This document shows positions 36,455 to 43,737 of a stretch of DNA of 64,000 nt, in pieces. A program made the translations under genes and the position numbers. Each line of letters starts with the position of its first letter. Position 1 is the first letter of the stretch. Under the pieces are notes generated by a model. The model saw only the letters and a list, made by a program, of their open reading frames with translations. It was not told the origin of the DNA and did not search any database. Source of the DNA: an uncultured Alphaproteobacteria bacterium (GTDB taxonomy: Bacteria > Pseudomonadota > Alphaproteobacteria > CAAHEQ01 > UBA3637); assembly GCA_949292205.1 (NCBI GenBank), contig CASEYR010000001.1:155530-219529 (forward strand), read 5' to 3'.

Positions 36455-36541
36455 GCCTCTGTGGCGAAATTGGTAGACGCGACAGACTCAAAATCTGTTG
36501 ATGGCAACATCATGCTGGTTCAAGTCCGGCCAGAGGTACCA
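36455..36541 (+). tRNA. tRNA-Leu (anticodon CAA), long variable arm
   Basis: Acceptor gcctctg/cagaggt (G1-U72), anticodon stem acaga/tctgt with loop ctCAAaa, variable arm, T-arm, encoded CCA. Confidence 0.9.
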
Positions 36542-37550: not shown

Positions 37551-37646
37551 CATAAACTTCCACTCGCTAACGCAAGTGGTGTTATCTGTTCCGAACGACG
37601 TTCGCCCAGCCCAAAAGCTTCGCAAGCCTAACGGCTGGGCTGGTAT
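37551..37646 (-). repeat. structured intergenic repeat family, copy 3 (5'-truncated, reverse orientation)
   Basis: Reverse complement matches copy 1 from ataccagcccagcc... to ...gcgagtggaagtttat, lacking the first hairpin and the 9-nt duplication. Confidence 0.6.
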
Positions 37647-38496
37647 GTTAAAACATCATAAGATAAGATGGATCATGTCTCTTTTGACTCCTCATGATTG
37701 ATGGTTTAAATTAAATATAGAAATGAGTATATAAATACTTTTTTTAAAATGCAAGCAAAAAGTATTATCTCCTTATTTTTAGAGTTTTCAATGACATTGA
37801 TTAAAAACACGCGGTACATCCCTATACAATATCCTTTAAAGGTATATCCATAGCGTTATAGATATAAAGTTTTACAAAAATAAATATTAAAAAACTCCAA
37901 AAGAGTATCTTTTTCGTTTTTCAGGAAAGATGATTATAAGGAGATTTACGAATTGTGATACCCGTTAAAATCAATCCGAAATGGTTTTTTTTATTGTTTT
38001 ACAATTGGTTGTGTGGATTCGATAATTACCCTTGTAGAAAGAGTATATAGCTGTAAATTATCAAACTTTTGGGGTGTGTTTTTTGTAAAAAAATAAGTGG
38101 GATTAGCTTAAAAAAGTTGATATTTTTTTTATTTCTTGTTAAAATTGACTACCAAGATTTTATTACATCAAATATCACAAGAGGCACTATGAACCATTGG
38201 ACAGAACTAAGTATTGAATACGCAAATCAGAAAAGTTACTTAGATGATCTTTTCTCTGTTTATCCAACTATTCCAAAGGGTATTAGGGATATTAACCAGT
38301 TGATGTGGAACAAAGTTGAAACTTTTGTAATGAACGGAATAATGAGGAACTTGTAACTTCTTGTCATAAGGGCAGGTTTAGATGAATTGTTCAAATTGTG
38401 ATTGAAAGGAAAGGCTTTCAATTAAACGATATAAATCATCAATTTCTTTGAAATGATTAGCTCGGTATTCGCAAAGCACGCTGTACCAAAAATTGT

Positions 38497-38523: not shown

Positions 38524-38537
38524 TATTAGTTGGATAT

Positions 38538-38612
38538 CTGGTGACATACTACCGCTTGGATTCTAGTGACATACTACCGCTTGGATTCTGGTGACATACT
38601 ACCGCTTGCCAC
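38538..38612 (+). repeat. 3 x 25-bp perfect or near-perfect tandem direct repeats (iteron-like) upstream of pilin-like gene
   Basis: ctggtgacatactaccgcttggatt / ctagtgacatactaccgcttggatt / ctggtgacatactaccgcttgccac. Confidence 0.8.
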
Positions 38613-38903
38613 ATCTATATAAAAGGAATCTTTTGACAATCTATTTCCTTAACACCCCATTTCCTTGATTCCGTTGCCCAATTGGCTGACGTTAAGTTAA
38701 TATCTTTTGATTAACTATTATTAAGCAGAATTTTCATAATCTGCTCTTTTCTGACAAATCGTATTGTTGAAATCCGATCGTTCCATAAAAATGGAACTAT
38801 AACAAATTCTTTTTAATAAATGAATCTAAACATCACAAATCTATTGACTTTCAAAATGGTTTATGACATTATGAAAAAAAGTATTAACGGGGAGTATTTT
38901 GTT

Positions 38904-40322
38904 ATGCGTAAAGAACAAATCAGTATGGAATCCGGACGGAGTATGGTTGAGGTCTTGGGTGTTCTGGCTTTGGTCGGATTACTGACGATTATGGGAATTA
39001 TCGGCATATTCTTTGCCATTGACAAAAATATGGCTAATACCATTGTTCACGATTCAAAAATTGCTTTTATGGAGATGAAAACGCCGTCAACAAAACCCTC
39101 TTTAGAGTGGAGCTCTATTTTATTCCAGCCGGTTTCCCAAAAAACAATGACCGTTCGTCGTGATTTTTTAGGGCGAGATTTTGTAAAAGCCGACAATATA
39201 GACCAAGGCGTTTGTAGACAAATGCTGAGTATGCGGGTTGAAAATGTCTTGAACTTTTACAACTTGGATAATACCGAGATGACTTCGTGTCTTGAAACAA
39301 ATGATATTATTATAGATTGGAATGGATTTGGTCCCCCTGCCGTTTGTCAAACCGTGTCGGATTGCGATGTTCCGAATGAACCGCCTTTTGAAGGAATCTG
39401 CTCTGATCAGGGACAATGCCAAGCTTGCCCCACCTATCAAAAACCAAACGCGAATCGCACAGCGTGTGTTTGTGATCCGGAACAAGCCGTCACTTGCACC
39501 TTAAATCAGGAAAATTGGTGTTGCGGTCCGGATTTGATTTGTGGCGATACTGTCGGCGAATGTATTGAGTCAAACTATACATGTGCCTATAACTTTTACC
39601 CGAACGGAGCACCCGGCACAATCTTTTACACAGATTGTAGTTATGTCGTTTCCGATCAAAACAATGTGTCGGAATATGGCGGGGATTGCACCTATGTCAT
39701 TCAAGAAACCGGAGATTCCAACAAGTGGGTAGACGGCACGGGAACAGAGCAAACGATTTACAAACCAGCCTCCGGCAATCGTTTTGCAACAGCCGGAAAA
39801 GGATGTCCCGCCAATCAATATTGTGCCGTTTTATGGGTTGACGATGACGGCGTTTGGAAGGCCGGTGAAACCAAAACGGCTCCTAACAATGCAACCGGTG
39901 TTTTATGGGGAAAATGTCAAATGTTATCTTCCTATGACCAAACCCCTATCACAAAATACAAAAACGGTTACGGCTTGGTAACGGTTAATCAGGGATGTCC
40001 GGCAGATCAATACTGTGCCGTTTTATGGACGTTACAGGAATGGACACCCGATATACAAACGCCAAAGGCCCCCAATGATGCAACGGGTATTTTATACGGG
40101 CGGTGCCAAATGTTATCTGCCTATGAACAAGAACCGTTATCCAAAAATGAAGCCGGAAACACCCGTTATCAAGTGGTTCAGGGATGTCCCGCCAACACCT
40201 ATTGCTATCTGAATTGGGAAACGGATACCGATTGCACCACCGTTTCCAACGATAAAACAGGGACAATTTATGGGGCCTGTGCCCAACTGAACAGTCGAGG
40301 AACTTGCCCGTATGAGAAATAA
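38904..40322 (+). CDS. prepilin-like N-terminus, Cys-rich secreted protein with three ~60-aa internal tandem repeats
   Basis: GGGGAG RBS; MRKEQISMESG|RSMVEVLGVLALVGLL (Gly then Glu at +5, hydrophobic helix; Flp/type IV prepilin-like, atypical Arg at +1); repeats QGCPAxQYCAVLW...NxATGxLxGxCQMLSxYxQxP; stop overlaps avd start. Confidence 0.55.
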   Translation: MRKEQISMESGRSMVEVLGVLALVGLLTIMGIIGIFFAIDKNMANTIVHDSKIAFMEMKTPSTKPSLEWSSILFQPVSQKTMTVRRDFLGRDFVKADNIDQGVCRQMLSMRVENVLNFYNLDNTEMTSCLETNDIIIDWNGFGPPAVCQTVSDCDVPNEPPFEGICSDQGQCQACPTYQKPNANRTACVCDPEQAVTCTLNQENWCCGPDLICGDTVGECIESNYTCAYNFYPNGAPGTIFYTDCSYVVSDQNNVSEYGGDCTYVIQETGDSNKWVDGTGTEQTIYKPASGNRFATAGKGCPANQYCAVLWVDDDGVWKAGETKTAPNNATGVLWGKCQMLSSYDQTPITKYKNGYGLVTVNQGCPADQYCAVLWTLQEWTPDIQTPKAPNDATGILYGRCQMLSAYEQEPLSKNEAGNTRYQVVQGCPANTYCYLNWETDTDCTTVSNDKTGTIYGACAQLNSRGTCPYEK

Positions 40323-40710
40323 TGAGGTTCTGCCCATTTACATAGAGGCCTATAACCTAACCCAGGATATTTTTAAGAAAACCGTCAAGTTTCCAAAAGA
40401 ATACAAATTTTTACTGGGAACACAGTTGAACGAGGCATCAATAGAGCTATGCTGCCTGATAACCAACACCGCCAGAGCGGCTCAAAAATCAGTGTTGTTG
40501 GAAGGTATTTTAAACCAGTTGGATAAAATAAAAATTGAATTCAGACTCTGTGCGGATTTTAAACTGTTAAGCAACCAACAACAGGCATCCATAGCCACAC
40601 GTTTAGAGAAAATAACGGGACAAGCGATTGCCTGGTTGAAAAGCGAAAGGAGGAAACAATCCATAACAAGTATGCCGGAGTCAGGAACAACTCCGAGTTA
40701 TCCTGAGTGA
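40312..40710 (+). CDS. avd: accessory variability determinant (Avd)-like small protein
   Basis: 132-aa predicted helical basic protein immediately upstream of TR and RT, as in DGR avd-TR-brt cassettes. Confidence 0.55.
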   Translation: MRNNEVLPIYIEAYNLTQDIFKKTVKFPKEYKFLLGTQLNEASIELCCLITNTARAAQKSVLLEGILNQLDKIKIEFRLCADFKLLSNQQQASIATRLEKITGQAIAWLKSERRKQSITSMPESGTTPSYPE

Positions 40711-40808
40711 GCATTTTATTTTTTAATTTTAAAAGGGTCGATCACCGCCTTTTGATGGTAAACACAATAGAATCGACTGGTACCTTGGGCGAAGTCCCGA
40801 AAACAGGG

Positions 40809-40917
40809 CGTGCCCAGTGCAAATAATGCATATAACGTGAATCTTTCTTCCGGTGCGGTCAACAACAACAATCGTGACAACAACAACACCGCCCTCTGCG
40901 TTGGATTCTGAGCTTTT
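40809..40917 (+). other. DGR template repeat (TR), 109 bp, adenine-rich (AAC/AAT codon runs)
   Basis: Matches reverse complement of 42538-42646 at 98 of 109 positions; all 11 mismatches are A in TR. Confidence 0.85.
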
Positions 40918-40942
40918 GAAATTAAAATAGCATGATATTATT

Positions 40943-42310
40943 ATGGAACAACTAAACTTTTACGATTTAGTATCTGATTTAACATTACAAGAGGTCTTTC
41001 AGTCCTATTTGGATTGTCGTCGAAACAAACGTCGTAGTTTGTCTTCTTTGCGTTTTGAAAGAGAATACGAACATAATCTGATTCGATTGTATGATGATAT
41101 TATACGCCGACGTTATCAGAGCCGCCCCTCCAAGGCCTTTATTGTGGATAAACCAGTCCAACGAGAGGTGTTTGCCGCCGATTTTCGGGATCGGATTATC
41201 CACCACCTAATCATCGGGTATTTAATGCCCGTGTTTGAACGTATTTTTTTAAATGAATCATACAGCTGTCGCGTCGGAAAAGGGACTCTATTCGGTATTC
41301 AATCCTGCGCTCAAATGATGCAAATTTGTTCCAATCATTACACAACGGATTGTTATGTGTTAAGGCTGGATATTCACGGCTTCTTTTTTCATATAGATAA
41401 ACGTATTTTATATCGAAAATTGAAACAGTTAATCGATACGCAATACCATCATGTAAATAAATCGACCATCTTGTTTTTAATCCGAGAAGTGTTGCGCGAT
41501 AATCCGACTGAAAATTGTAAAATCAGCGGATCTAAAAGCGCATGGATTGGACTTCCAAAAACAAAAAGCCTGTTTTTCAGCGGCCGAAACAAAGGACTTC
41601 CCATCGGTAATCTGACCAGCCAAGTTTTTGCCAATTTTTATTTGAATGATTTTGACCATTATGTCACTGGGTTGGATAAAGATTTGTTTTATGGACGATA
41701 CGTCGACGATATCGTCATTATGCACCCCAGCCGGGAGTATCTGCTTCAAGTCAAACAACACATCGACACTTATTTAAGGCAAGAGCTGGGGTTAACATTA
41801 CACCCGAAAAAGGTATCATTACAACATTATGCCAAAGGGTTCGCCTTTGTCGGCGCCTATATCAAACCCGGACGCGTTTATCCTGGCAAAAGGTTGCGTC
41901 GATCATTTTATTTAAAGATGCAACACCTGAACACGTTATGGGAAAACAACACACAAAAAATGAACCGAGCGTTGCTTGAAAAGACGTTATCAAGCATCAA
42001 TTCTTATTTTGGGTTATTAAAACACTTTGACGCCTGGCGGATCAAATTAAAGGGATGGAATATGTTAAACGAACAAATCCGAAGTGTTTTTCGAACAAAT
42101 GAACGGTTAAACAAAGTCTGGATAGAGCCCCAAACAAAACGCCAGATGATTGATGATGCCCGAAAAATGTTCACAGAGCCACTCAGGTATCCCAAGAAAT
42201 ATAAAAATCTTGTCCAAAAATGGAATCGCCTGTCACCGGAAGAGGCACTCAAATCTTGTTTAGGTCCTTCTTACATCACGATACCAGAAGACGAAAAAGA
42301 ATCCACTTGA
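40943..42310 (+). CDS. DGR-type reverse transcriptase
   Basis: RT motifs including LPIGNLTSQVFANFYLNDFD (DGR hallmark IGxxxSQ) and FYGRYVDDIVIM (YxDD). Confidence 0.9.
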   Translation: MEQLNFYDLVSDLTLQEVFQSYLDCRRNKRRSLSSLRFEREYEHNLIRLYDDIIRRRYQSRPSKAFIVDKPVQREVFAADFRDRIIHHLIIGYLMPVFERIFLNESYSCRVGKGTLFGIQSCAQMMQICSNHYTTDCYVLRLDIHGFFFHIDKRILYRKLKQLIDTQYHHVNKSTILFLIREVLRDNPTENCKISGSKSAWIGLPKTKSLFFSGRNKGLPIGNLTSQVFANFYLNDFDHYVTGLDKDLFYGRYVDDIVIMHPSREYLLQVKQHIDTYLRQELGLTLHPKKVSLQHYAKGFAFVGAYIKPGRVYPGKRLRRSFYLKMQHLNTLWENNTQKMNRALLEKTLSSINSYFGLLKHFDAWRIKLKGWNMLNEQIRSVFRTNERLNKVWIEPQTKRQMIDDARKMFTEPLRYPKKYKNLVQKWNRLSPEEALKSCLGPSYITIPEDEKEST

Positions 42311-42430
42311 GATGCATTTGCATACTGTAATGCGATTGGAGAACGTTTGATTGACGCAACGACAGAGTGTGTTAAAACGATGTGGACAGGCGAAAGTGGA
42401 ATTGGGAAAAGAGGAAAAGACCGAGGATAG
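42311..42430 (+). pseudogene. decayed fragment of a C-type-lectin-like DGR target paralog, in frame directly after the RT stop
   Basis: Translates DAFAYCNAIGERLIDATTECVKTMWTG, compared with SAFAWCDAIGGQLIDITTECIKTTGTTG in the intact target (about 65% nt identity); no start codon. Confidence 0.5.
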
Positions 42431-42537
42431 CAGGGAAATAAAAACGGCCGCTTCGCGGCCGAGACCTGTCCGCCGGGGACGTCGGACAGGAAAAAAAGTC
42501 TGCCATAAAAGGCAGACTTAGTTAAAAAAATGTTAAT

Positions 42538-42646
42538 AAAAGCTCAGAATCCAACGCAGAGGGCGGTGATGCTGCTGTCACGATTGCTGGTGGTGACCGC
42601 ACCGGAAGAAAGATACACGAAATATGCATAAATTGCACTGGGCACG
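42538..42646 (-). other. DGR variable repeat (VR) at 3' end of target gene
   Basis: Cognate of TR; substitutions A->T x6, A->C x2, A->G x3 relative to TR, none at non-A positions; 3' 27 nt identical to TR. Confidence 0.85.
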
Positions 42647-42924
42647 TTTTGTGTCCATACCAAAGCACTTCCAGTCTCTGTTAAATTCGGGCACCCCGTT
42701 GTTCCGGTTGTTTTAATACATTCCGTTGTTATATCAATCAGCTGTCCCCCGATTGCATCACACCAAGCAAAAGCACTCCACCAATTCATATTAGTATTAC
42801 TTTGACAATAACGGGTGCCGTCCAAGCCCGTCACAACGGTTCCACTACCCCCCGCGCATGATTCGGCAACCGCCGATGTTGACAACAAAACAGATAAACA
42901 AATCATCCCTATGTATTTTTTCAT
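42544..42924 (-). CDS. DGR target: small secreted C-type-lectin-fold-like variable protein (126 aa precursor)
   Basis: Sec signal MKKYIGMICLSVLLSTSAVA; WSAFAWCDAIGGQL motif (CLec-like WxxAxxxCxxxGxxL); C-terminal 34 aa encoded by VR. Confidence 0.8.
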   Translation of the reverse strand: MKKYIGMICLSVLLSTSAVAESCAGGSGTVVTGLDGTRYCQSNTNMNWWSAFAWCDAIGGQLIDITTECIKTTGTTGCPNLTETGSALVWTQNVPSAIYAYFVYLSSGAVTTSNRDSSITALCVGF

Positions 42925-43092: not shown

Positions 43093-43737
43093 TCAGCGTC
43101 CTAACTTTTCATACCGTTGAACCAATCGGGTATATTGGTCTTTTGTATACCGATGTTGAATGTTAGAGCGTGTTCCCGCAGAAGCAGAAAGCGGACTGAC
43201 AACCCGCCAAAAACCATTTCCATCTAACCGAAAAACCTCTCCCGTCAATGTTTTGGGAATAACACCTGATTTATCCGTTCCCTCTGCACGAATTGAATCT
43301 GATGTTAAAGCCGAATTTTTAAAAAACGTCATCCACTCTTGCCGAGTCATCGCATGATTATCAGATGGTGTATAATTTTGTAAAAACTCTTTTTCAAATA
43401 TACCACTCGGTAATTTCTTTTGTTGACGCGCTATTGCCAAAGCCTCTTTTACAGCTGAACGAATCCCACGTTTTTTATCTTTTTGAACGATATCTAAAAT
43501 AAAATCAGATTGGGCAAAAATTTGATTAAACTCAACCGATCTTGCCCCGATGTTATTATCATCAATTTCGGCAGAAAAGCTCTGTTTCGGATTGCTTTCA
43601 ACCCGTTTAACGTAGTCATCAAATGCTTTTTCCCCAGGTAATTTTGTATCGCCATTACATCCAACACCCAACAAAGACAGTGTCGCCATTGATAACGCCG
43701 CCGCCATTCCTTTAAATGATTTCTTTAACTCTGTCAT
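43093..43737 (-). CDS. lipoprotein, hypothetical
   Basis: Lipobox LLGVGC; 4-nt overlap with upstream ABC transporter gene. Confidence 0.5.
   Translation of the reverse strand: MTELKKSFKGMAAALSMATLSLLGVGCNGDTKLPGEKAFDDYVKRVESNPKQSFSAEIDDNNIGARSVEFNQIFAQSDFILDIVQKDKKRGIRSAVKEALAIARQQKKLPSGIFEKEFLQNYTPSDNHAMTRQEWMTFFKNSALTSDSIRAEGTDKSGVIPKTLTGEVFRLDGNGFWRVVSPLSASAGTRSNIQHRYTKDQYTRLVQRYEKLGR

Follow-up and report, generated by a model that had tools for sequence, protein, structure and literature searches.

A 64-kb stretch of DNA from an uncultured gut alphaproteobacterium (the window, 64,000 nucleotides), an assignment supported solely by the names under which homologous MAG proteins and contigs are recorded, carries a reverse transcriptase (RT), a template repeat (TR), and an avd-like gene next to a small secreted-protein gene encoded on the opposite strand, which raises the question of whether these parts form a working diversity-generating retroelement (DGR). 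The first-pass annotation had proposed an avd-TR-RT cassette with an inverted target gene carrying the variable repeat (VR), and every feature of this proposal was found, with boundaries shifted by a few bases at most (Table 1). The DGR reading itself was borne out by the RT class, the Avd matches, a C-type-lectin (CLec) fold predicted for the target, and VR substitutions confined to TR adenines, both within the window and between strain alleles. With its parts complete and intact, the locus is very likely a chromosomal, functional DGR, genuine and apparently active in its host.

Table 1. Features of the DGR locus, numbered from the first nucleotide of the window
Feature	Position	Strand	Description
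P500, Cys-rich type IV pilin-like protein	38904-40322	+	500-aa ORF opening at 38820; likely start 38904
avd, accessory variability determinant	40312-40710	+	132 aa, uninterrupted; NCBIfam DivGenRetAVD E=1.5e-11; Pfam bAvd E=4.5e-8; PHROG "Avd protein of DGR" E=3.2e-13
avd-TR spacer	40711-40808	+	conserved hairpin ~40735-40778; 5′ half (~40722-40734) of an AU-rich stem pairing with TR 3′ end
TR	40809-40917	+	109 nt, 11 in-frame AAY codons; repeat finder
DGR RT	40943-42310	+	455 aa, uninterrupted; motifs LPIGNLTSQ and YVDD; Pfam RVT_1 E=1.3e-18; PHROG 1423 E=2.3e-87
Relic lectin fragment	42314-42400	+	corresponds to lectin residues 51-77; starts 4 nt after RT stop codon
Hairpin 3	42461-42445	-	7 GC pairs, GAA loop, T-run; 76 nt away
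Hairpin 2	42490-42465	-	GC-rich
Hairpin 1	42519-42496	-	GC-rich, 9-bp stem, 6-nt loop, T-run; nearest to VR
VR	42538-42646	-	109 nt; repeat finder, TR comparison
Target gene	42544-42924	-	126-aa secreted C-type-lectin-like protein, uninterrupted; signal peptide ~residues 1-20, C-type-lectin-like domain (CTLD) ~105 aa

The TR and VR form an inverted repeat with arms of 109 nt that are 90% complementary, and all 11 mismatches between them fall at TR adenines (30 of the 109 nt; hypergeometric p=1.4e-7). The VR is single, as no further TR-like copy was found in the window when scored on non-adenine positions. It does end the target gene, spanning codons 93-126 and the stop codon, although it comprises the last 100 coding nucleotides, the stop codon, and a further 6 nt rather than simply the last 109 bp; likewise, its placement downstream of the RT on the opposite strand stands, but the gap from the RT stop codon is 227 nt rather than 230 bp. 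The description of the TR as adenine-rich holds for its 11 AAY codons, where the adenines are concentrated and fall in codon positions 1 and 2 of the target, but not for the repeat overall, which is only 27.5% A. Substitution at these AAY codons and at four other A-containing codons would allow ∼2e15 C-terminal sequences, none of which contains a stop codon.

The final 31 nt of the TR (40887-40917), an IMH*-like segment, are identical to the VR, where the corresponding substitution-free IMH-like segment (42538-42568) starts with the GC-rich run CACCGCCCTCTGCG. Identical IMH and IMH* are a known DGR variant (PMC5758913), and, since the two are the same in sequence, the distinction between donor and recipient must rest on downstream sequence. 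In relatives a hairpin is found 15-25 nt past the end of TR-VR homology at every VR, remote VRs included. In the DGR consensus, the VR is followed by a GC-rich hairpin with a stem of 7-10 bp and a GRNA loop of 4 nt, and the nearest of the three hairpins at this locus does not fit that loop; because of its 6-nt loop and T-run, it may simply be the terminator of the lectin gene.

Comparison with other strains places the diversification late in the history of the locus. Strain L007 is 98.5% identical to the window over 9.4 kb and has an identical TR, and its VR differs from that of the window at 17 positions, 17/17 of them TR adenines, whereas a mere 2 nt of difference separate the strains across the TR and 2.3 kb of cassette; diversification therefore postdates nearly all the remaining divergence there. 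Within L007 itself, 15/15 TR/VR mismatches are at TR adenines, and a third allele (L043) has 11 adenine mismatches plus an in-frame 3-nt insertion, so that the VRs of the window, L007, and L043 show no non-adenine mismatch to the TR. The L007 comparison is natural, if indirect, support for mutagenic retrohoming. Furthermore, the assemblies of L001 and L043 end exactly at the VR end, where breaks are to be expected of a heterogeneous or repeated region. These clean and recent adenine differences and assembly breaks, together with three intact ORFs and a catalytic YVDD, make a fossil DGR improbable, with cassette and VR left over from earlier activity and a lectin no longer diversified in the window strain, even though loss of function does occur in this lineage: the locus of sister strains L003 and L008 is syntenic but with avd-TR-RT absent from the same site, and the VR of L008 has decayed (28 non-adenine mismatches plus indels). 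Also on the side of a fossil element, the three close alleles all come from different samples. The close alleles P0003 and P0006 share no sample with the contigs of the window strain.

The genomic surroundings are chromosomal. The element is flanked by housekeeping genes (Der, BamB, SDR, tRNA-Leu, an MsbA-like ABC transporter, XerC/D, and PriA) and the locus is syntenic in strains without the cassette; the lectin, P500, and a 214-aa neighbor have no PHROG matches, the last of these matching nothing in Pfam or NCBIfam either, and the lectin stands alone as a protein with a signal peptide and is no fiber. It is thus highly improbable that the DGR is phage-borne and diversifies a receptor-binding protein from within a prophage, as in BPP-1, and a prophage or ICE context was ruled out by the PHROG search and the housekeeping neighbors. 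The placement of the element in an AT-rich accessory block is wrong, since the GC content of the DGR segment (0.40-0.44) is no lower than the ∼0.39 averaged over the window; only the flank at 37-39 kb is AT-rich (GC 0.33).

The RT is assigned to the DGR clade by its motifs ([LIV]GxxxSQ and YxDD) and its scores. Its best match in the PDB is the DGR RT of a Bordetella phage (8ub7; E=1e-25, 94 bits), whereas group II, retron, and Drt RTs reach E=1.6e-8 or weaker and at most 37.5 bits. The best NCBIfam match is a group II RT/maturase (E=7e-31), followed by weaker Drt3a, Drt2, and retron matches, but these scores are far under the curated cut-offs (107 versus 300 bits and 63 versus 200) and come from a set of matches that included no DGR RT model. 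For the adjacent gene, the DGR Avd models rank top in three libraries (NCBIfam, Pfam, and PHROGs), in agreement with its annotation as avd-like, the NCBIfam and Pfam scores being under curated cut-offs. A DGR-specific Avd beside the RT, an Rfam search of the window that found two tRNAs and nothing else, neither intron nor retron RNA, in the TR region or elsewhere, and mismatches lying on adenines of one copy in 11/11, 15/15, and 11/11 cases leave next to no chance, NCBIfam ranking notwithstanding, that the RT belongs to another class (group II intron, retron, or Drt) and that the inverted repeat arose by ordinary duplication of the 3′ end of the lectin gene.

An RNA element may accompany the TR. 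RNAalifold on six relatives (∼4 independent lineages) weakly supports a 12-bp closing stem and the spacer hairpin, with 1-2 compensatory pairs each, and the single-sequence fold of the TR region gained no stability over shuffled sequences (z=0.1).

The first-pass annotation also anticipated a CLec fold for the target, and the predicted structure is a compact C-type-lectin-like domain (pLDDT 90) with the VR at its C terminus and the variable residues in C-terminal strands and loops. Its top structural neighbors are compact animal-type CTLDs. At the sequence level, the lectin has no match in Pfam, NCBIfam, or PHROG; phmmer gave sub-significant matches only (DC-SIGN CRD, E ∼0.5), and the Pfam models FGE-sulfatase, DUF1566, and Lectin_C match none of 38 family members even at E≤1. 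It begins with an ordinary signal peptide that contains no lipobox. The family to which it belongs comprises 671 cluster representatives without a Pfam match and represents a sizeable set of minimal C-type-lectin-like proteins, whose mature length of ∼105 aa makes a compact DGR scaffold; DGR target proteins as short as 44 aa were listed by Wu et al. 2018 (PMC5758913).

The inverted layout is present as claimed, but it carries less weight than was implied, because TR and VR on opposite strands are rare but documented elsewhere (PMC6602519, PMC3521204), with opposite-strand VRs among 48 described DGR architectures (PMC5758913), and because homing was unaffected in BPP-1 experiments that inverted the target (PMC3240598). 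The relic lectin fragment, found in protein and DNA alignments (tblastn, 65.5% identity over 29 aa, E=5e-8) and also as a self-repeat, lies on the plus strand directly after the RT stop codon and suggests an ancestral target on the RT strand, as in relatives. Close relatives share this cassette but with a same-strand target, and, more broadly, homologous cassettes in relatives have adenine-biased TR/VR pairs in either target orientation, some with several remote VRs. Together with the locus, they show by natural example that a single DGR lineage can have its target on either strand or far from the cassette.

P500 lies upstream of avd, in the position that the target has in canonical DGRs, and its 3′ end, stop codon included, shares 11 nt with the start of avd. 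P500 was considered as a second DGR target and rejected: the window holds no other TR-like sequence, even on non-adenine positions only, and P500 is therefore not a current target. Genes of this lectin family are habitually paired with a Cys-rich type IV pilin-like gene, and one natural fusion protein (P0243) joins lectin and pilin-like modules. When this fusion was considered as a possible DGR target in its own right, its only contig proved to be 3.4 kb long, and the 124-aa gene downstream is not an Avd. The predicted fold of P500 is pilin-like, with a long N-terminal helix lying against a β-sheet, and its C-terminal repeat region has pLDDT <50. The N-terminal motif G-RSMVE-VLGVLALVGLL is almost invariant in the family and the only pilin-like motif in the window; set against the class III signal, which combines a short basic leader with Gly at −1, Glu at +5, and a hydrophobic helix, it is atypical as a prepilin motif. 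Pfam N_methyl matches 5 of 12 family members weakly (best E=0.0057) and not the window protein, which has no match in Pfam, NCBIfam, or PHROG. No pilus assembly genes adjoin the locus. In relative L009, the cassette has a Peptidase_A24 gene at a distance of 5 kb.

Judging from the gene pairing and the one fusion protein, the lectin probably works with the adjacent P500 as a variable adhesin, which gives a testable hypothesis for its site of action. A more speculative possibility is a split, two-gene adhesin, in which a P500 stalk on the cell or pilus captures the free, diversified minimal lectin as an exchangeable ligand-binding tip, and in which avd-TR-RT, lying between the two genes, is gained and lost as a unit by within-species recombination. 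If true, DGR hypervariation would here be tied for the first time to an organelle of the type IV pilin type, and the lectin would be a non-covalent "plug-in" variable head.

For the DGR as a whole, the following mechanism is proposed, in which we infer the cDNA and homing steps from Bordetella phage BPP-1. P500, avd, TR, and RT would probably be transcribed as one unit, and, with TR and VR on opposite strands, two transcription units are needed. A complex of RT and Avd would reverse-transcribe the TR RNA, misincorporating opposite template adenines, and the mutagenized cDNA would replace the VR in the convergent lectin gene, with the GC-started IMH and the downstream hairpins as the putative recipient marks. 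The output would be a diversified C terminus on a secreted, disulfide-stabilized C-type-lectin-like scaffold, the ligand and location of which we infer.

Among known systems, the gut-bacterial DGRs with a type V pilus are similar in that a DGR-diversified C-Lec head is tied to a pilus-type adhesive organelle; some of their variable proteins are small and need extra factors for display, and these DGRs are horizontally mobile. Here, the partner is type IV pilin-like, the lectin is a separate polypeptide, and no ICE or phage context was seen. CofB-CofJ and TcpB-TcpF are examples of a large type IVb minor pilin and its secreted partner. From these pairs, and from modular type IV pilins such as PilB of S. 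sanguinis (PMC8179133), the locus differs in having no adjoining pilus assembly genes, an atypical prepilin motif (G-RSMVE), and a hypothetical P500-lectin interaction. The DGR of Legionella pneumophila (LdtA) has short targets of DUF1566/CLec2 type (category "d", Wu et al. 2018, PMC5758913), whereas the present lectin family matches none of the DUF1566, FGE-sulfatase, and Lectin_C models, and its window member differs from LdtA in its lack of a lipobox, its ordinary signal peptide, and its nearest structures. Opposite-strand DGRs such as that of Pseudogulbenkiania sp. NH8B (PMC3521204) share the TR and VR arrangement, but here it is the sole VR that is inverted, close to the RT stop codon and with the relic same-strand fragment between. 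The BPP-1 DGR (mtd-avd-TR-brt) has the same avd-TR-RT core order, the closest solved RT, adenine-specific TR-to-VR substitutions, AAY codons, a CLec-fold target whose gene has the VR at its 3′ end, a GC-started IMH, and inverted repeats downstream of the VR. It is, however, phage-borne, with a large trimeric tail-fiber target upstream on the same strand, whereas the window element is chromosomal and has a free-standing secreted CTLD as its downstream, convergent target, identical IMH and IMH*, a TR-RT spacer of 25 nt, and a non-diversified pilin-like gene in the slot upstream of avd. The locus leaves the understanding of how DGRs work unchanged and is of an already well known kind; it adds a well supported, apparently active DGR from the poorly known gut and rumen Alphaproteobacteria, the new details being the target family, the pilin-like partner gene, and the rare inverted layout.

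The three open reading frames proposed in the first-pass annotation of a diversity-generating retroelement (DGR), encoding Avd, a reverse transcriptase (RT) and a secreted C-type-lectin-like (CTLD) target protein (the lectin), are all present and uninterrupted. The claimed pairing of a template repeat (TR) with a variable repeat (VR) was recovered independently by a repeat finder, as inverted arms of 109 nt with 90% complementarity. When the + arm was aligned with the reverse complement of the - arm, all 11 mismatches fell at + arm adenines, which account for 30 of the 109 nt (hypergeometric p = 1.4e-7 for mismatches confined to A), and TR-VR homology was lost sharply at either end. In the frame of the lectin, the TR holds 11 AAY codons plus four further codons containing A before the last observed substitution, giving a coding potential of ~15^11 x 4^4 (about 2e15) protein variants, in which a stop codon is impossible. 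The final 31 nt, beginning with the GC-rich run CACCGCCCTCTGCG, carry no substitutions, adenines included, and thus behave as the IMH (the 3' segment of a VR) does. No further TR-like copy was found on either strand of the entire 64-kb window when non-A positions alone were scored, and P500, a Cys-rich, type-IV-pilin-like protein encoded upstream of avd, was rejected as a DGR target on this basis.

Features of the DGR locus and its surroundings (window coordinates unless a locus is named)
Feature	Position	Strand	Remark
tRNA-Leu	36455-36541		
Hairpin-rich element	37552-37648		97 nt; counterpart at L003 6394-6490
Tsp45I remnant	38069-38356	+	
Tandem repeats	38537-38611		three of 25 nt
P500 gene	38904-40322	+	500 aa; probable start 38904
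Low-divergence tract	40272-42566		window against L007
avd	40312-40710	+	132 aa
Segment absent in cassette-less loci	40314-42537		junctions L003 6382-6596, L008 6388-6392
Predicted AU stem	~40722-40734 with ~40911-40925		12 bp
Conserved hairpin upstream of TR	~40735-40778		
TR	40809-40917	+	109 nt
IMH* (TR counterpart of IMH)	40887-40917	+	31 nt
RT gene	40943-42310	+	455 aa
Relic lectin fragment	42314-42400	+	29 codons
Hairpins downstream of VR	42519-42496, 42490-42465, 42461-42445	-	lectin strand
VR	42538-42646	-	109 nt
IMH	42568-42538	-	31 nt
Lectin gene	42544-42924	-	126 aa
214-aa ORF	43093-43737	-	

Comparison with related loci was informative on activity. Two of these (L001 and L002) are fragments of the window's own genome in other assemblies (100% identity), and L007 derives from a strain with the same layout and 98.5% identity across 9.4 kb. 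Between L007 and the window, avd, the avd-TR spacer, the TR and the RT-VR spacer are identical, and 2 nt distinguish the RT genes; the VR shows 17 differences over its 109 nt, every one of them at a TR-adenine position. Scored against the window TR, the window and L007 alleles show 11 and 15 A mismatches, respectively, with no non-A mismatches and no indels. The VR of locus L043 has 11 A and no non-A mismatches with a 3-nt in-frame insertion within an AAC run, that of L003 has 13 A and four non-A mismatches (three of them at the extreme 3' end) and no indels, and that of L044 has 12 A and three non-A mismatches with a 9-nt insertion. DGRs are known to yield indels opposite AAC runs as a by-product (PMC5758913). 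This comparison, made across strains and samples rather than within-sample reads, is the natural-population equivalent of the amplicon test suggested in the first-pass annotation.

The ends of L001 (window 42539) and L043 show that independent metagenome assemblies stop exactly where TR-VR homology ends, the assembler behavior expected at a hypervariable or repeated VR. Assembly breaks of this kind may serve as flags for DGR targets.

The RT matches RVT_1 (E = 1.3e-18) and its translation contains both the DGR-specific motif (LPIGNLTSQ) and the catalytic box (YVDD), as first annotated. Among solved structures, the Bordetella phage DGR RT is its closest relative (8ub7; E = 1e-25, 94 bits), as compared with at most 37.5 bits for group II, retron, Cas-RT and Drt enzymes; the group II, Drt and retron RT models of NCBIfam match only well under their cut-offs, and PHROG 1423 matches at 2.3e-87. 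The assignment of avd likewise stands, with DGR Avd models as the top matches in three libraries (PHROG 3.2e-13; NCBIfam 1.5e-11 and Pfam bAvd 4.5e-8, both under curated cut-offs). Taken together, these data reveal a bona fide, complete DGR that is very probably active and whose mechanism is standard.

The IMH is identical to IMH*, as already noted for some DGRs, and recognition must consequently reach into downstream sequence. Past the VR, the lectin strand has three hairpins. A GC-rich hairpin was found 15-25 nt past the end of homology at every relative VR examined, remote VRs included, and TR-VR homology ended in GCTTTT in all cases examined. The hairpin nearest the VR departs from the 4-nt GRNA consensus of phage DGRs and, having a 6-nt loop and a T-run, may simply be a terminator. 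On the donor side, alignment of six avd-RT intergenic regions predicts an AU-rich stem that spans the whole TR, joining the 3' end of the TR to the sequence immediately past the avd stop, as well as a conserved hairpin upstream. Each has one or two compensatory pairs, drawn from about four independent lineages, with a single-sequence z of 0.1; as a lead only, the two may represent the DGR RNA scaffold. Between TR and RT there are 25 nt in the window versus 14-17 nt in relatives.

Sister strains at L008 (flanks 98.2% identical) and L003/L004 (85%) have the same flanking genes but lack everything between the avd start and the lectin stop, so that lectin and P500 converge directly. The L008 VR has decayed and the L003 VR retains its match to the window TR, indicating that the cassette was there recently or lies elsewhere in that genome. 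Between the window and L007, a tract almost exactly coincident with the missing segment differs at 2 of 2295 nt, where ~45 differences are expected from the flank rate (~2%); the nominal p of 2e-17 overstates this, since divergence is also patchy elsewhere (some 500-nt windows have 1-3 differences). These patterns fit a recent spread of the cassette by recombination, the genes for P500 and the lectin serving as homology arms.

P500, whose gene overlaps the avd start by 11 nt, occupies the slot upstream of avd used by targets in canonical DGRs. Its family is small (14 homologues), with a near-invariant N terminus (G-RSMVE-LGVLA-IGVL), many invariant cysteines and ~63-aa repeats of variable number. 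The structural model is confident for residues 30-210, a 45-residue helix followed by a β domain, and Pfam N_methyl gave a weak match in 5 of 12 family members. P500-like genes adjoin lectin genes at ~18 non-redundant loci, some with avd-TR-RT in between and some without (besides the window, L003, L005, L008, L009, L011, L013-L016, L021, L026, L030, L034-L036, L039 and L041). Moreover, P0243, a 633-aa protein at locus L042, is a natural fusion of a homologous pilin-like N terminus (E = 9e-7), a Cys-rich stalk and two lectin domains. From the family N terminus, the model, the N_methyl matches, the gene adjacency and this fusion, we infer that the lectin supplies the ligand-binding part of a pilin-type adhesin, here split over two polypeptides.

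The convergent lectin is present as first annotated, but the weight placed on this layout was too great, because TR and VR on opposite strands are rare but already known (PMC6602519; PMC3521204). Among 48 catalogued cassette architectures some have components on different strands (PMC5758913), and target inversion in Bordetella phage BPP-1 left homing unaffected (PMC3240598). Within the DGR lineage of the window, target orientation is labile: P500-avd-TR-RT-lectin run on one strand in L005/L006/L012, L009/L010, L021 and L038, the lectin is convergent in the window, L007 and the distant L016, and A-biased TR/VR pairs occur in both layouts. A relic lectin fragment on the RT strand, beginning 4 nt past the RT stop and 65% identical to lectin residues 51-77, suggests a past same-strand target after the RT. 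On the simplest reading, a former same-strand lectin, placed as in relatives, was mostly deleted, leaving the convergent copy as the sole VR-bearing target.

In two MAGs (JAZTVX 'SGB_6600' and JAFTSJ 'RGIG4106'), one TR matches multiple remote VRs on other contigs with A-biased mismatches, indicating multi-target DGRs. These MAGs (L018-L038) have 8-12 or more paralogues of the lectin, many of which lie at the ends of contigs, and only one RT locus was recovered from each. All named homologues and contigs belong to MAGs titled 'Alphaproteobacteria bacterium', recovered from gut compartments of roe deer and goat, in addition to MAGs with SGB-number labels.

The locus is flanked by chromosomal housekeeping genes, with Der, BamB, a TPR protein, an SDR, a methyltransferase and tRNA-Leu on one side and the 214-aa ORF, an MsbA-like ABC transporter, XerC/D and PriA on the other; no phage genes were found around it. 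Its placement in an AT-rich block was not borne out, as the GC content of the DGR is 0.40-0.44 versus a window mean of ~0.39; the AT-rich part is the 37-39 kb flank. This flank contains a remnant of a Tsp45I restriction endonuclease (profile positions 1-44 of 260, E = 2.2e-16) and, nearby, three tandem repeats in the AT-rich stretch between tRNA-Leu and P500, which looks like a gene-flux hotspot. A hairpin-rich sequence from the same flank, possibly a small mobile or REP-like element, recurs 99% identical and inverted between the lectin and P500 genes in L003/L004. The 214-aa ORF adjoining the lectin has a signal-peptide-like N terminus ending in LLGVGC, a possible lipobox, and no match in Pfam, NCBIfam or PHROGs; its position is constant in all close strains, with or without the cassette.

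The lectin family comprises 671 representatives at E ≤ 1e-3 (510 at ≤ 1e-10), without a match in Pfam. This compact CTLD target family is new, as are the pilin-like partner gene, the presence/absence polymorphism of the cassette, and the rare target orientation with a relic suggesting its origin. No published link of DGRs to type IV pilins was found in the literature searched; for type V pilus tips in Bacteroides, such a link has been published. The novelty of this system lies in its membership and detail, and not in the DGR mechanism.
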